A stretch of 64,000 nt of DNA. It comes from Escherichia phage vB_EcoM_G2540-3. Below are positions 55,579 through 61,091 of the stretch, in pieces. The notes beneath the pieces were generated by a model. That model did no database searches. It saw only the letters and a list, made by a program, of their open reading frames with translations, and was not told the DNA's origin. A program made the translations under genes and the position numbers. Within the stretch, counting starts at the first letter, position 1, and the number at the start of each line of letters is the position of its first letter. The stretch is taken from the sequence record MK327944.1; one strand, written 5' to 3'.

Positions 55579-56543
55579 TGTATTCTTTAGAGGAATTTAA
55601 TAATCAAGCAATAAACGCAGATTTCCAACGTAATAATATGTTTAGCTGCGTTTTTGCAACAACTCCATCAACTAAAAGCTCTTCGTTGATAAGTTCAATT
55701 AGCAACTTTTCTTATAATAACTTGGGCCTAAATTCAAATTGGTTAGGATTAACTCAAGGTGATATTAATCAGGGAATTACCACGCTAATTACCGCTGGCA
55801 CACAAAAACTAATAAGAAAATCAGGAGTCAGTAAATATCTTATTGGTGCCATGAGTCAACGTACTGTCCAGAGTTTATTAGGCTCATTTACAGTCGGTAC
55901 ATATTTAATCGATTTCTTTAATATGGCGTATAATTCATCTGGATTGATGATATATTCTGTAAAAATGCCAGAGAATAGATTATCCTATGAAACTGACTGG
56001 AACTATAATTCTCCTAATATTCGTATAACTGGGAGAGAATTAGACCCTTTGGTTATTTCATTTAGAATGGATTCAGAAGCTTGTAACTATCGTGCAATGC
56101 AAGACTGGGTTAACTCCGTTCAAGACCCAGTAACTGGACTACGTGCTTTGCCGCAAGATGTCGAGGCAGATATTCAGGTTAATCTTCATTCTCGTAATGG
56201 ATTGCCTCATACTGCGGTGATGTTCACCGGATGCATTCCAATATCAGTGAGCGCTCCTGAGTTATCGTATGATGGAGATAACCAAATAACTACATTTGAT
56301 GTTACTTTTGCGTATAGAGTGATGCAGGCTGGAGCAGTTGATAGGCAAGCTGCGCTTGAATGGCTTGAATCTGCTGCTATAAATGGTATTCAAAGCGTTC
56401 TCGGAAATAGTGGAGGTGTTACTGGACTATCTAATTCGCTTTCACGACTCAGTAGATTAGGTGGAACTGCAGGAAGCATTTCAAACATTAATACTATGAC
56501 AGGAATTGTCAATTCGCAAAGTAAAATATTAGGAGCAATATAA
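55578..56543 (+). CDS. 54: baseplate-tail tube initiator gp54
   Basis: 321 aa, T4 gp54 size. Confidence 0.85.
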   Translation: MYSLEEFNNQAINADFQRNNMFSCVFATTPSTKSSSLISSISNFSYNNLGLNSNWLGLTQGDINQGITTLITAGTQKLIRKSGVSKYLIGAMSQRTVQSLLGSFTVGTYLIDFFNMAYNSSGLMIYSVKMPENRLSYETDWNYNSPNIRITGRELDPLVISFRMDSEACNYRAMQDWVNSVQDPVTGLRALPQDVEADIQVNLHSRNGLPHTAVMFTGCIPISVSAPELSYDGDNQITTFDVTFAYRVMQAGAVDRQAALEWLESAAINGIQSVLGNSGGVTGLSNSLSRLSRLGGTAGSISNINTMTGIVNSQSKILGAI

Positions 56544-56545
56544 CA

Positions 56546-56577
56546 ATGGGGACCGAAAGGTCCCCATATTTTTATTT
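56546..56577. terminator. bidirectional terminator between gene 54 and the alt region
   Basis: ATGGGGACC-GAAA-GGTCCCCAT followed by ATTTTTATTT. Confidence 0.7.
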
Positions 56578-56862
56578 ACGGAATGAAATGAAAGCAGCAA
56601 CTGAAGCAACTAAACTGTCTTCAATATAAACTTCAATTTTTACCGGAGCTTCTGACTCAAATTTACCTGTTACTACACCCTGAAAAATACTTTCAGTCTG
56701 TTCTGGCTTTGAAAAATTTTCAGAAGGAAAAATTCCAAACTTTTTATCTGTTCCGAAAATTTTGATAAATTCATCATAAACTGCTTCATTAAAAGCATTA
56801 TCAGCAGGAATAACGCCTTCAACTACAAGTTCTTGACCTAAAAAGCGTAAAGAAGATTTCAT
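56572..56862 (-). CDS. hypothetical protein (alt.-3-like)
   Basis: 96-aa ORF. Confidence 0.55.
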   Translation of the reverse strand: MKSSLRFLGQELVVEGVIPADNAFNEAVYDEFIKIFGTDKKFGIFPSENFSKPEQTESIFQGVVTGKFESEAPVKIEVYIEDSLVASVAAFISFRK

Positions 56863-56894
56863 TTTGTGTTCCTCATGTTATGTCAGTAAGACTA

Positions 56895-57280
56895 CTATAA
56901 CACAACACGAGGGACTTGTAAACTACATTTTGAACTTTTTAGTACGCGTAATAGGCATGCGTCGATTTTATACTGTTTCATTGTTTGAAGAGCAGTATCA
57001 AAAACAGCATTAATGACACCAATTGGATTTCCACCCAAGTTTTTAAGCTTAACTAATGATAGTTTCTCATTAACACCTATCATTACGATATGCATCATTT
57101 TATCGCCCGGCTTAACGTTTTATTCGTATCACCGCCAGAGGTGTATGTACAAAATCTAAATCCAGGAAGCACGCTTTCTTCGCCGGCTTGAATAGCAAAA
57201 ATTTGTGGTATTTTATGCTTAGGATTTAAGTTAACAACCGGCGCCGAAGCGCCGTCAAATAATTCTGTAATAAGTTCCAT
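56895..57280 (-). pseudogene. decayed paralog of the alt N-terminal region, interrupted by a frameshift
   Basis: ORFs 57095..57280 and 56895..57098 in different frames together align to alt residues 1 to about 125; 1-nt indel relative to alt. Confidence 0.6.
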
Positions 57281-57283
57281 GAT

Positions 57284-57610
57284 TTATCCTTGAACGAACT
57301 TGTAAGGCATGTTTGCAATATCTATGCAAGACGCAATAATTCCAAGAGATGATTCTACTTTCTGTTTAACATTTGATGAAACAAATGATGCAAAGTCAAC
57401 TCTATCTTCTATATCACCTGTCATTGTAACCAATTCACCAGTTTCCATTAAACGGTCACCGTCATAGATTACCGATTCGGTGAGTTCTTCTGTGGTCATA
57501 ACTTCAGCTTGAATAAGCTTGTTGTTAGTTCTAACTGTTCCATCGTTGTAAGATGCATCGGTTATTTTATTAACTTTGACCATTAATCCACGTGGCAAAA
57601 TGACTTCCAT
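57284..57610 (-). CDS. alt C-terminal fragment (108 aa) detached by the 55-bp duplication; starts within the E-M-E motif
   Basis: Frame is continuous with alt if one repeat copy is removed; weak RBS, so probably not expressed on its own. Confidence 0.6.
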   Translation of the reverse strand: MEVILPRGLMVKVNKITDASYNDGTVRTNNKLIQAEVMTTEELTESVIYDGDRLMETGELVTMTGDIEDRVDFASFVSSNVKQKVESSLGIIASCIDIANMPYKFVQG

Positions 57611-57623
57611 TTCATTTGAAGGC

Positions 57624-57678
57624 GCTAAACTTCCACCGGGTAAAACAACATTGACCTTATCAGCCCCAGTAATAACCC
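57624..57678. repeat. 55-bp perfect tandem duplication, copy 1 (contains the premature alt stop)
   Basis: gctaaacttccaccgggtaaaacaacattgaccttatcagccccagtaataaccc, identical to 57679-57733. Confidence 0.95.
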
Positions 57679-59393
57679 GCTAAACTTCCACCGGGTAAAA
57701 CAACATTGACCTTATCAGCCCCAGTAATAACCCATCCAATTCCAACTAAATTATCGCTAGAATTTACTAGTCCTTCATCAGTTTTATCAATAGAAACACT
57801 TAGACGCTTTTCGTCTGGTAAAACACCTATAGATGAATCAGTCATCCAAGTACCAAAAATATTTGGATATAATGATGTTGACACAAAGTTTCTAAAATAA
57901 AAAACTCGATTTTTTACCATTGCTTCATATATTGAAGGTAACATTCGTTGTGAACGATACAAAGTAATACCTTTTGGTAATCGTTCACCATTTTTAAAGG
58001 CTGAATCTAAATTATCAATGGCTTGTTCTATTTCAGGTGCTGTTAAAATACTTGTACGCTCATCTGGATTATATAATCCCAAAAGAGCATTATTTATGTC
58101 TACATATCCTGAACCTACATATTCACGAATTCCGCGTTTTTGCGCTGGTGTGTATTTAGATGAATCTTTATTTTCGACTATAGGATGTAATGACCATCCA
58201 GCGGTAAGAGCATATCCACGTAATTCTCTTCGAATAATCTTTGTTTTTATTGCATTCCAAGAATTTTGCACTAACTCATTATTCGCAGCGTCTTGATTTA
58301 AATGCGAATGTCTGTTAATATTTCTTTCAAACCAGGCACCTTTATATTTTTCTAAAGTATCATCGACGATAGAAGCAATAGTTTCTAAAGTTTTTATTGA
58401 AGTAATAGATTCTTTTCGTAATTTTTCTAAAGCTTTATTTTTTATTTCTGCATTAATAATGGATTCTTTATCTTCAGGAATTATAGAAGCTTCTCTGAAT
58501 GCCATCCCAGCTGTAACACTGCTAAGAGCATTCTCTAGTGCAAATCCTGAAGTAGAAATTACCGTTAATTCATTAGAATCAGAAATTAAAGGCGCGTCCG
58601 CTGGTTTATTTAATTCTGCCGCTGAAGCCTCAAATTTTTGAAACATCGGTGTTTCAAATCTAGAAGATTCCAATGACTGACTTTGTGCAATTGCTCTACG
58701 GGAAATTTTAACTTTAACGATTACAGCTTGGTCAGAACGTTTATCATTTTCTTGTGCAATAGATGCTGCAATTGCCTCATTTTTAGTTACTTGAGCTCCA
58801 GTATCTTTATTGATATAAACATCACCGACCTTCGATTCAACTTTAGTAAAGAGCTCGGTACTAATTTCCGGAACCCCTGGAATGTCTTCTAGTGATACAT
58901 TTTTGCGATGTATAAGAATATATGCATACTTTTTATCATAATCCCAGAGTTCCTTAAGAAGGACGTATCTGCCACCTGAACGACTACGGATAAGTCTATC
59001 AGCAATAACTTGAATTTGTCGAGCTTGGCCAGCAGTTTTAGACTTAAGAATACGAAGCATACAAGCATCAATTTTATACTGACGCATTGTTTGCATTGCA
59101 ACAGTAAAAACCGAATTGATATAATTAATTGGGCTTGGACCAAGACCTTTCAATTTAGCAATTGAACCTTTAGCGGTTAATGTAAAAGGAACAATATGCA
59201 TCATTTTATCGCCCATCTTTAAATCACGATTAGTATCACCTCCAGATGTATAGGTACATAAACGAAAGCCTGGTTGTTCAATTGCGTCATCAACATGAAC
59301 TGAAAAAATTTGCGGTATTTTCTTCTTTGGATTTAAGTTTGTAATCGGAAGAGTAGTATCTTCGTCAAATAATTCTGTAATTAGTTCCATCAT
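57660..59393 (-). CDS. alt: ADP-ribosyltransferase Alt, truncated (577 aa; about 684 aa expected if uninterrupted)
   Basis: Late promoter and RBS upstream; C-terminal region has TLYRSQ and FVSTSL (R and STS motifs); ends in frameshifted tail GYYWG-stop inside repeat copy 1. Confidence 0.75.
   Translation of the reverse strand: MMELITELFDEDTTLPITNLNPKKKIPQIFSVHVDDAIEQPGFRLCTYTSGGDTNRDLKMGDKMMHIVPFTLTAKGSIAKLKGLGPSPINYINSVFTVAMQTMRQYKIDACMLRILKSKTAGQARQIQVIADRLIRSRSGGRYVLLKELWDYDKKYAYILIHRKNVSLEDIPGVPEISTELFTKVESKVGDVYINKDTGAQVTKNEAIAASIAQENDKRSDQAVIVKVKISRRAIAQSQSLESSRFETPMFQKFEASAAELNKPADAPLISDSNELTVISTSGFALENALSSVTAGMAFREASIIPEDKESIINAEIKNKALEKLRKESITSIKTLETIASIVDDTLEKYKGAWFERNINRHSHLNQDAANNELVQNSWNAIKTKIIRRELRGYALTAGWSLHPIVENKDSSKYTPAQKRGIREYVGSGYVDINNALLGLYNPDERTSILTAPEIEQAIDNLDSAFKNGERLPKGITLYRSQRMLPSIYEAMVKNRVFYFRNFVSTSLYPNIFGTWMTDSSIGVLPDEKRLSVSIDKTDEGLVNSSDNLVGIGWVITGADKVNVVLPGGSLAGYYWG
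57679..57733. repeat. 55-bp perfect tandem duplication, copy 2
   Basis: Identical to copy 1. Confidence 0.95.
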
Positions 59394-59413
59394 ATCCTCT
59401 CTAGTGTTTATTC

Positions 59414-59421
59414 TATTTATA
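59414..59421 (-). promoter_or_regulatory. late promoter TATAAATA for alt
   Basis: Minus-strand TATAAATA, then GAGAGGA RBS and ATG. Confidence 0.6.
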
Positions 59422-59426
59422 AAATT

Positions 59427-59444
59427 AAAGGCCCGAAGGCCTTT
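59427..59444 (-). other. RNA hairpin (UUCG loop on the minus transcript)
   Basis: Minus-strand AAAGGCCTTCGGGCCTTT after the 59443..59631 ORF. Confidence 0.45.
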
Positions 59445-59631
59445 AGTAATCTAGTGGTAAGAGAGTACGATATATTTCAAACTTTGGTCCTTTTTCATAG
59501 GCATCAAATGTTTCTGTGAATTTATTATAAGCGTATGCATCTACAAATTCGAGAATGACTTGTGATACAGAAGTAGAAACATCTCCACCTTCTTTTTGAG
59601 CAATGACAATTGTTTCTAAGTAAGCTTTCAT
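59443..59631 (-). CDS. hypothetical small protein
   Basis: 62-aa ORF overlapping ligase stop by 4 bp. Confidence 0.5.
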   Translation of the reverse strand: MKAYLETIVIAQKEGGDVSTSVSQVILEFVDAYAYNKFTETFDAYEKGPKFEIYRTLLPLDY

Positions 59632-61091
59632 AGACCAGTTACCTCATGAAAATCACCAAATACATCTTCGAACGTATTAGCTTTAGTTTTATCTTCGCGT
59701 AAACGAATCGCAATCGGAAGAAATAATTTAACGTAATCAGTGCGGCCATCAGATTTTAACCAACCGTTGCATTCGCACTCTAGAATTTTTCCAATATAAT
59801 AATTTTGGTTTTCCATAATGCGAGTACGGTCAAGTTCATGCGATTTTACACCGGCTTTATCTTTTAAGCCTGAACCAGCATTTACCTTAATTTTTCCACA
59901 CTCTGACTCAAGAATAAATCCACCTGCTTTAGTAGGGTCTTTACGGTGAGGATAAATTCCTACAATTTTTAAATCAACATCAATTACTTCTTTAAATTTA
60001 TAGAGATTTTTTGAACGAGCATTTTCCCATAATCCATCGATATTTTTGAGAATAATACCTTCAAGACCTTGGTCAATATACTTTTTATAAATTACCTTAG
60101 CTTCATCTAGGTTATTTACTACCTGGTTTTCAATTAAAATTACTTTATCATAGCCTGATGTCATTTGTTCTAGTTTAGAAAAACGTACATCATATTTCAA
60201 ACGAAATGCAGGAAGACCGTATATTTCTACCAACGGAACATAATCCCAGACCTGAAACTTCATGCATTGAGCTTCTTTTTCAGAAATGGTTCCCTTTAAA
60301 GATTTATTGGCGATGCCATTAGATGCAGTACGTGATTCAGCTACTTCTGTGAAGTCTTTAACTTTACTGTTTTCAGGATGAGCATCAAAAAGAAAATCTA
60401 GGCCTTCTGGCTCCTTTTTAACTTGCTCATGGTATACCAATTCGCCATCAATTAACACGCCTTCTGGATGAATCTGGCGGGCTTCAGCGGTCATTTTGAT
60501 TAATTCTTCCTTAAGAAGATCTAATCCTAGATATTCATTACCGGCTCGTGATAAAAGACGAACATCATCTAATTCATCACCTCTGACTTCGGCAAAGCAC
60601 CGAGCCCCATCAGCTTTTAACTGGGCAAAGGCTGGAAATTTGATATTCTTATTAATGCCTTTTTCATCATAAGAACTTGCAAGCATTTGAGGTTGTTCAG
60701 GAATTAAACCTGGCCAAACTTTGTTTGCAATAGATACTGAAGCACCACATTCAAGGTCTCGCATCATCACTCGACGCAAAACTTCAACATCATCTTTTTT
60801 ACCATCGGTGATATATCCAGATAATTCCTCAATTGCCGCATTTCCGGTCAATTTCCGAGTAGCTAACGTGAATTCAATGAAGTCAAGCATATCGGTAAGA
60901 GTCAACATTCCAAAACTCTGGGTAGCAATACCAGGTTTAGGCCATTTCTTAATATAATACTGCAACCCACGAGAATAAGTCAGACGATATACTCGTTTAA
61001 GCAATTCATTATCTTTATTCTTTTCAAGAATTGCTTGCTTCTGCTTAGTTGAACCAATAGATGCTATTTCGTTCAGAATTTTAAGAATCAT
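59628..61091 (-). CDS. 30: ATP-dependent DNA ligase
   Basis: 487 aa (T4 ligase size); adenylation motif KADG in FAQLKADGARCF. Confidence 0.9.
   Translation of the reverse strand: MILKILNEIASIGSTKQKQAILEKNKDNELLKRVYRLTYSRGLQYYIKKWPKPGIATQSFGMLTLTDMLDFIEFTLATRKLTGNAAIEELSGYITDGKKDDVEVLRRVMMRDLECGASVSIANKVWPGLIPEQPQMLASSYDEKGINKNIKFPAFAQLKADGARCFAEVRGDELDDVRLLSRAGNEYLGLDLLKEELIKMTAEARQIHPEGVLIDGELVYHEQVKKEPEGLDFLFDAHPENSKVKDFTEVAESRTASNGIANKSLKGTISEKEAQCMKFQVWDYVPLVEIYGLPAFRLKYDVRFSKLEQMTSGYDKVILIENQVVNNLDEAKVIYKKYIDQGLEGIILKNIDGLWENARSKNLYKFKEVIDVDLKIVGIYPHRKDPTKAGGFILESECGKIKVNAGSGLKDKAGVKSHELDRTRIMENQNYYIGKILECECNGWLKSDGRTDYVKLFLPIAIRLREDKTKANTFEDVFGDFHEVTGL

Follow-up and report, generated by a model that had tools for sequence, protein, structure and literature searches.

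The Alt protein of bacteriophage T4 (gpAlt, 682 aa) is a packaged and injected mono-ADP-ribosyltransferase that modifies the alpha subunit of RNA polymerase and other host proteins. Six residues are cleaved off Alt according to the annotation of record X15811, and two reviews of the T4 head offered nothing specific about the Alt N-terminus as a capsid-targeting sequence. Two small T4 genes, alt.-1 and alt.-2, were listed by Nolan et al. (2006; PMC1524935) among the paralogous duplications of adjacent genes, together with a full-length duplicate of alt in phage 44RR; ORF187c/188c of 44RR and ORF183c of RB49 are the alt duplicates of more distant T4-like phages (PMC1524935). GenBank describes the T4 pair in two ways: the note in the T4T record (HM137666.1) explains alt.-1 and alt.-2 by a deletion and a further frame shift in a second copy of alt, and that in the T4 reference (NC_000866.4) by a duplicated first part of alt into which a stop codon was introduced. 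In the time-resolved omics study of T4 by Wolfram-Schauerte et al., the alt.-1 and alt.-2 transcripts are classed as 'middle', the two proteins are classed as 'NA' and went undetected in the time course, which weighs little for proteins of 6-7 kDa, and alt.-3 is early both as RNA and as protein (PMC9697503 Table S2).

We considered this locus in Escherichia phage vB_EcoM_G2540-3, a Tequatrovirus (T4-type), using a stretch of 64,000 nucleotides of record MK327944.1, hereafter the window. Positions 56500-59700 of the window are 99.2% identical to Escherichia phage vB_EcoM_112 (e11/2) and 97.6% identical to T4, and the 641 nt spanning the region studied here have 100% DNA identity with e11/2 and 98.1% with T4. 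On the minus strand the order of genes is DNA ligase (gene 30), alt.1, alt, two short ORFs and a DUF5498 ORF that corresponds to alt.-3, while genes 54 and 48 lie on the plus strand, convergent with the alt.-3 side. The two short ORFs are thus found on the strand of alt, between alt and alt.-3/gene 54, a layout shared by T4T and e11/2. Judged by sequence, they are the T4 genes alt.-1 and alt.-2, already annotated and published, and to recognise them here is correct but ordinary. The two together are very probably a pseudogene, transcribed but without function, a remnant of a second alt gene in tandem with the first that has the form known from T4; its features are collected in Table 1. Between the convergent gene 54 and alt.-3, positions 56546-56567 form a perfect GC-rich hairpin with a 9-bp stem and T-runs on both strands, which resembles a bidirectional terminator; e11/2 has a terminator annotated there.

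Table 1. Features of the alt.-1/alt.-2 remnant and of the neighbouring alt gene (window positions)
Feature	Position	Strand	Description
alt (first copy; comparison paralogue)	57284..59393	-	split into ORFs of 577 aa and 108 aa by a 55-bp tandem duplication
AAGGA Shine-Dalgarno-like motif	57287..57291	-	putative, from sequence inspection; 6 nt before the ATG of alt.-1; overlaps the end of alt
alt.-1 ORF	57095..57280	-	61 aa; begins with codons 1-54 of the second alt copy; 7 codons out of frame (TLSRAIK) and a TGA follow
Frameshift site	57118..57121	-	A4 run, against A5 in intact copies and deletion-only relatives; AATAAAAAC/T becomes AATAAAAC (alignments)
ATGA overlap	TGA 57097..57095; ATG 57098..57096		stop of alt.-1 and start of alt.-2
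alt.-2 ORF	56895..57098	-	67 aa; begins with codons 62-116 of the second alt copy (MMHIV...RVLKS); a tail of 12 codons follows
Deletion junction	56934..56942	-	one remaining copy of the 9-bp direct repeat CTAAAAAGT
Former TAG stop of the second alt copy	56923..56925	-	out of frame, read through by alt.-2; the Jbel 3' end is ...AAGTTCAAGATGTAGTTTACAAG
Promoter-like site (G)TTTACA-17-TG-TATAGT	56894..56922	-	upstream of alt.-3, inside the alt.-2 tail

In BLASTP, alt.-1 matches residues 2-58 of the alt ORF of the window with 36 identities in 57 (63%, E 5e-24) and alt.-2 matches residues 64-118 with 34 in 55 (62%, E 9e-22), the two matches being collinear and far better than chance. As DNA, the remnant and the 5' end of alt are 68.6% identical over 334 nt (E 2e-26). 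The first-pass annotation, which had described two ORFs collinear with the Alt N-terminus and had proposed their alignment with the 5' region of alt and their comparison with alt.-1 and alt.-2 of T4, is borne out on each of these points, similarity to alt being above chance and the T4 pair being the same genetic element (98.1% DNA identity). It also rightly placed the copy directly downstream of alt; the 4-bp gap that it reported is in fact 3 nt, from the alt TAA (57286..57284) to the alt.-1 ATG at 57280, and the same gap separates the intact alt copies of phage Jbel. Among protein families, the Alt-like phrog_802 is matched by alt.-1 at profile positions 2-59 and by alt.-2 at 64-120, and each ORF also has a PHROG of its own over its full length, phrog_23015 for alt.-1 (E 1.7e-46) and phrog_15247 for alt.-2 (E 8.8e-50). 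The remnant therefore carries an Alt-type N-terminal region of about 120 aa with a MELITE start, these six residues being the same as those cleaved off Alt; peptides predicted from the ORFs would include LFDGASAPVVNLNPK for Alt.-1 once MELITE is removed and LSLVK/NLGGNPIGVINAVFDTALQTMK for Alt.-2. The 12-codon tail of alt.-2, SKCSLQVPRVVL, is without Alt homology. No Pfam match to the ART catalytic domain (R, S-T-S, E-x-E) was obtained for either ORF or for a joined 128-aa form, and as Pfam gave nothing on all three it offers no domain-level clue to the function of the N-terminal region; the region of the PF03496 domain falls inside a deleted segment of 1699 bp.

The gene in its complete form is present in many relatives. 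In Salmonella phage Jbel, 3 nt separate two complete alt genes, which encode 682 and 685 aa and the products of which are 41% identical overall and about 65-70% identical over their first ~235 residues; the PF03496 (ADPrib_exo_Tox) ADP-ribosyltransferase domain is found in both copies, and the R, S-T-S and E-x-E motifs are kept in the second. Megablast with the Jbel second copy retrieved 497 phage records from the GenBank phage collection on which this survey is based (IMG/VR, searched with the N-terminal 120 aa, gave only 8 loci). At least 80% of the query is covered in 402 of them, including T2, T6, RB10, RB14, RB27 and RB51, and the full-length matches are all of 2058 nt among the matches listed; the remaining records match only nt 1-348. 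When the remnant with its downstream flank was used as the query, the deleted form was found in 90 of 501 records, and the remnant is, on these counts, a minority and derived state among the relatives. Annotation of the intact second copy varies, the name being 'alt.-2' in RB14, RB51 and ime09, or 'Alt-like RNA polymerase ADP-ribosyltransferase'. The remnant has about 95-98% DNA identity with the 5' end of the gene for the 685-aa paralogue but only ~68% with alt, and its immediate parent is this diverged full-length paralogue and not alt. The comparison with intact copies supports the account of HM137666.1 over that of NC_000866.4 and settles the matter: the deletion took place in a full-length second copy, and it was not just the first part of alt that was duplicated.

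Two lesions distinguish the remnant from the intact gene. By BLAST, the minus strand of the window is continuous with Jbel through alt and the first 348 nt of the second copy and resumes in the last ~20 nt of the latter, the two aligned segments overlapping by 9 nt. The intact gene contains the direct repeat CTAAAAAGT twice, first at nt 340-348 and then at nt 2039-2047, and only one of the two is retained in the window, with a loss of 1699 bp, as measured against Jbel and the loci L004 and L005. This length is not a multiple of three, so that translation passes the old TAG in another frame and ends at 56895-56897, within the -10 hexamer of the promoter-like site of alt.-3. That site is a strong one, with 10 of 12 matches plus the TG extension, the identical promoter-like sequence follows the stop codon of the intact second copy in Jbel, and the site may be a reason for the conservation of the last part of the remnant. 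In an alignment of the window with the remnants of ten further phages and with the intact Jbel copy (5' end), the junction CTAAAAAGT is common to 11 of 11 remnants, F25 having one nucleotide less in the A-run of the junction. The second lesion is at codon 54/55, where an A5 run has become A4 through the loss of a single A. The 1-nt indel that had been held to break the frame is thus real, and it lies in the A-run at 57118-57121, seven codons upstream of the ORF overlap and not at the overlap itself.

Relatives carry these lesions in different combinations (Tequatroviruses AV121 and FL44, T4, e11/2, F25 and others), from which their order can be read. Both AV121 and FL44 have the deletion, with the same junction and tail, in an uninterrupted ORF of 128 aa that shows neither the frameshift nor a stop at codon 6; because these two phages carry the deletion alone, the deletion came before the frameshift. 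The A-run frameshift is present in the window, e11/2, T4 and F25. A GAA-to-TAA stop at codon 6 is found in 7 of 13 remnants (loci L012-L015 and L017-L019), in fPS-90, SG1, EC128 and PTE-Eco15 without the A-run frameshift and in CE1, PD112 and HY03 together with it, and this occurrence with or without the frameshift implies that remnant haplotypes have recombined or that the mutation has recurred. A further nucleotide is missing from a T-run in CE1 and PD112, and HY03 has a 7-bp duplication. Among the best 60 of the 90 remnant records, 47 agree with the window in length (641 nt), 8 are longer by 1 nt and 5 are shorter by 1 nt. Fifteen polymorphic sites are common to remnant haplotypes and intact copies, a pattern that could result from recombination or from a deletion that arose more than once between the 9-bp repeats. 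Taken from the intact gene through the deletion-only form and the forms with frameshift or nonsense mutation to those with more indels, the series is a tidy case of stepwise gene decay in T-even phages. AV121 (L020 311-697) and FL44 (L029 362-748), which represent the earliest decay stage, are both pig-associated Tequatroviruses from Denmark. The succession of tandem duplication, deletion and frameshift put forward in the first-pass annotation agrees with AV121 and FL44, with the GenBank notes and with Nolan et al. (2006); it is refined here in that the immediate parent is the 685-aa paralogue.

Selection was compared over codons 1-116 in 10 intact copies and 13 remnants. The intact copies have a single K/R polymorphism despite a pS of 0.17 (pN/pS 0.01), and all 22 of their 22 private alleles are synonymous, whereas the remnants have several changes, including the codon-6 stop (pN/pS 0.085), and 8 of their 12 private alleles change the protein (1 nonsense, 7 missense). 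This difference in private alleles is significant (Fisher p = 2.7e-5), with the proviso that the sequences are few and related, that these phages recombine and that alleles were counted and not events. Under neutrality, a fraction of 0.78 would be expected to change the protein, and the remnants are compatible with this value (p = 0.31). The remnant pN/pS of 0.085 is itself well below 1. Most of the remnant divergence is inherited shared polymorphism, so that the test rests on the 12 private alleles. The intact second copy is, by this measure, under strong purifying selection, and the substitution pattern of the remnant fits neutral decay. Of the statement that the copy still encodes the head-targeting region, the sequence similarity stands; a coding capacity maintained by selection does not, given the substitution patterns and the independent disabling mutations.

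The history of the locus may be sketched as follows. A T-even ancestor very probably had two full-length alt-type ADP-ribosyltransferase genes side by side, 3 nt apart, an arrangement kept by most Tequatroviruses of today. In the line to which T4, e11/2 and the window belong, a deletion of 1699 bp between the CTAAAAAGT repeats, probably by replication slippage or by recombination at these 9-bp repeats, removed codons 117-682 of the second copy and with them the whole ART domain. The shift of frame led to read-through of the old stop into the alt.-3 promoter, giving an ORF of 128 codons, which the later loss of an A in the A5 run at codon 54/55 split into the 61-codon alt.-1 and the 67-codon alt.-2. 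The ATGA overlap of the two arose by chance, because the original Met62-Met63 codons come after the new stop. The remnant DNA may persist because it is young, has a 3'-terminal place in the alt transcription unit and carries the alt.-3 promoter in its last ~30 bp. Compared with the intact orthologue, it has two disabling lesions, the 1699-bp deletion and the 1-nt frameshift, to which relaxed constraint and independent lesions are added in a small and non-independent sample.

In this phage the first alt copy is also broken. A perfect tandem duplication of 55 bp at 57623..57733 (2.0 copies, 100% match), absent from e11/2, shifts the frame of alt and divides the PF03496 domain, so that the 577-aa ORF contains profile positions 1-153 and the 108-aa ORF positions 161-195; the 577-aa ORF stops just before NEMEVILPRG, the motif with the predicted catalytic E-x-E. 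No exact match to the junction of this duplication was found in IMG/VR or in the JGI metagenomes, and none in the best 10 phage records. The duplication may be genuine or may stem from the assembly; should it be genuine, this phage would have no intact alt-type gene at the locus, the second copy being a pseudogene. Elsewhere in alt, an insertion of 3 nt relative to e11/2 at 58282-58284 adds an Asn (AANNELVQ against AANELVQ), with an adjacent substitution at 58281 in the alignment.

Of the alternatives to a pseudogene, the first is that Alt.-1 and Alt.-2 are functional small proteins translated from the mRNA of alt, that translation of Alt.-2 is coupled by way of the ATGA overlap, and that the N-terminal region is of use, for example in prohead targeting or in competition with Alt for packaging; we regard this as unlikely. 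Transcripts of both genes were detected in T4, but neither protein was found in the time-course proteome (PMC9697503). Neither ORF is interrupted in the window, e11/2 or T4, and the window length recurs in 47 of the best 60 remnant records, yet the codon-6 stop interrupts 7 of 13 remnants, and extra frameshifts or the 7-bp duplication occur in others. The AAGGA before alt.-1 and the ATGA overlap would permit translational coupling, and small peptides may well be made; the tail of alt.-2 is nevertheless an accidental read-through of a promoter. The MELITE of alt.-1 is identical to the 6 residues cleaved from Alt in maturation (X15811 annotation), and the N-terminal 116 residues are near-invariant in intact copies, where this domain must matter, whereas the private substitutions of the remnants are mostly protein-changing and compatible with neutrality.

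A narrower proposal, which we hold to be very unlikely, is that an Alt-type N-terminal fragment is made (the 61-aa Alt.-1 here and in T4, a 128-aa product in AV121 and FL44) and enters proheads by its MELITE end, as an injected protein or as a competitor that tunes the packaging of Alt. If true, it would be of special interest in this phage, in which the first alt copy is itself broken by the 55-bp duplication.

That the ORFs are rejoined into a 128-aa Alt N-terminal protein, whether by programmed -1 ribosomal frameshifting or by slippage of transcription at the A-run, has almost no chance of being the explanation. Seen from alt.-1, alt.-2 occupies the -1 frame; a shift by -1 directly behind the AAA of codon 54 would bring back the ancestral ...DTNKNVKPGDKMMHIV, and the joined product would carry the junction-spanning peptide ...GGDTNKNVKPGDK...; the only possible site, however, is AAU AAA ACG, which does not have the form X XXY YYZ and at which the slipped Lys tRNA lands on UAA, and upstream of it the -1 frame is closed by UAA. 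An A-run of 4 nt is below the known requirement for transcriptional slippage, and the arrangement is unconserved, relatives being without the frameshift or having extra disabling mutations. The first-pass annotation had named such a programmed joining of the ORFs into a functional protein as the case against its own reading, and no signal for it was found, there being no slippery heptamer and the downstream RNA folding no better than shuffles (z = -0.96); heptamer, A-run length, fold and conservation together largely refute frameshift and slippage alike. That the A-run frameshift is a sequencing or assembly error, the true product being an uninterrupted 128-aa ORF, is almost certainly wrong and was rejected, for although a changed homopolymer length is a common type of error, A4 is shared by e11/2 and by many T4 genomes and relatives that were sequenced independently (47 of the best 60 records at 641 nt), with a check at sequence level in T4 and F25.

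A pseudogene derived from a second alt copy is the reading that we retain, and the practical consequence for annotation is that both ORFs should be labelled as one pseudogene and not as two hypothetical proteins; otherwise the element is of minor importance. Its closest counterparts are alt.-1 (NP_049810, P39495) and alt.-2 (NP_049809, P39494) of T4, which have the same position, lengths of 61 and 67 aa, junction, A-run frameshift and ATGA overlap; at ~98% DNA identity they differ from the window by point differences only (N17T in T4 and a few silent changes) and are the same element. T4 Alt shares with the remnant a paralogous N-terminal region and the identical start MELITELFD, but the remnant is without the catalytic domain. 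With the second alt copy of T2, T6, RB14, RB51, Shfl2 and Jbel, the first 348 nt are orthologous, the start lies at the same place 3 nt after alt and the alt.-3 promoter is the same; these phages keep codons 117-685 with PF03496, whereas the window is short of 1699 bp and one base. T4 accordingly has no second Alt-type ADP-ribosyltransferase, an enzyme that ~80% of its close relatives have. More distantly, the alt duplicates of 44RR and RB49, as described by Nolan et al. (2006; PMC1524935), on whose account this comparison draws, suggest that tandem duplication of alt followed by truncation recurs in the family.
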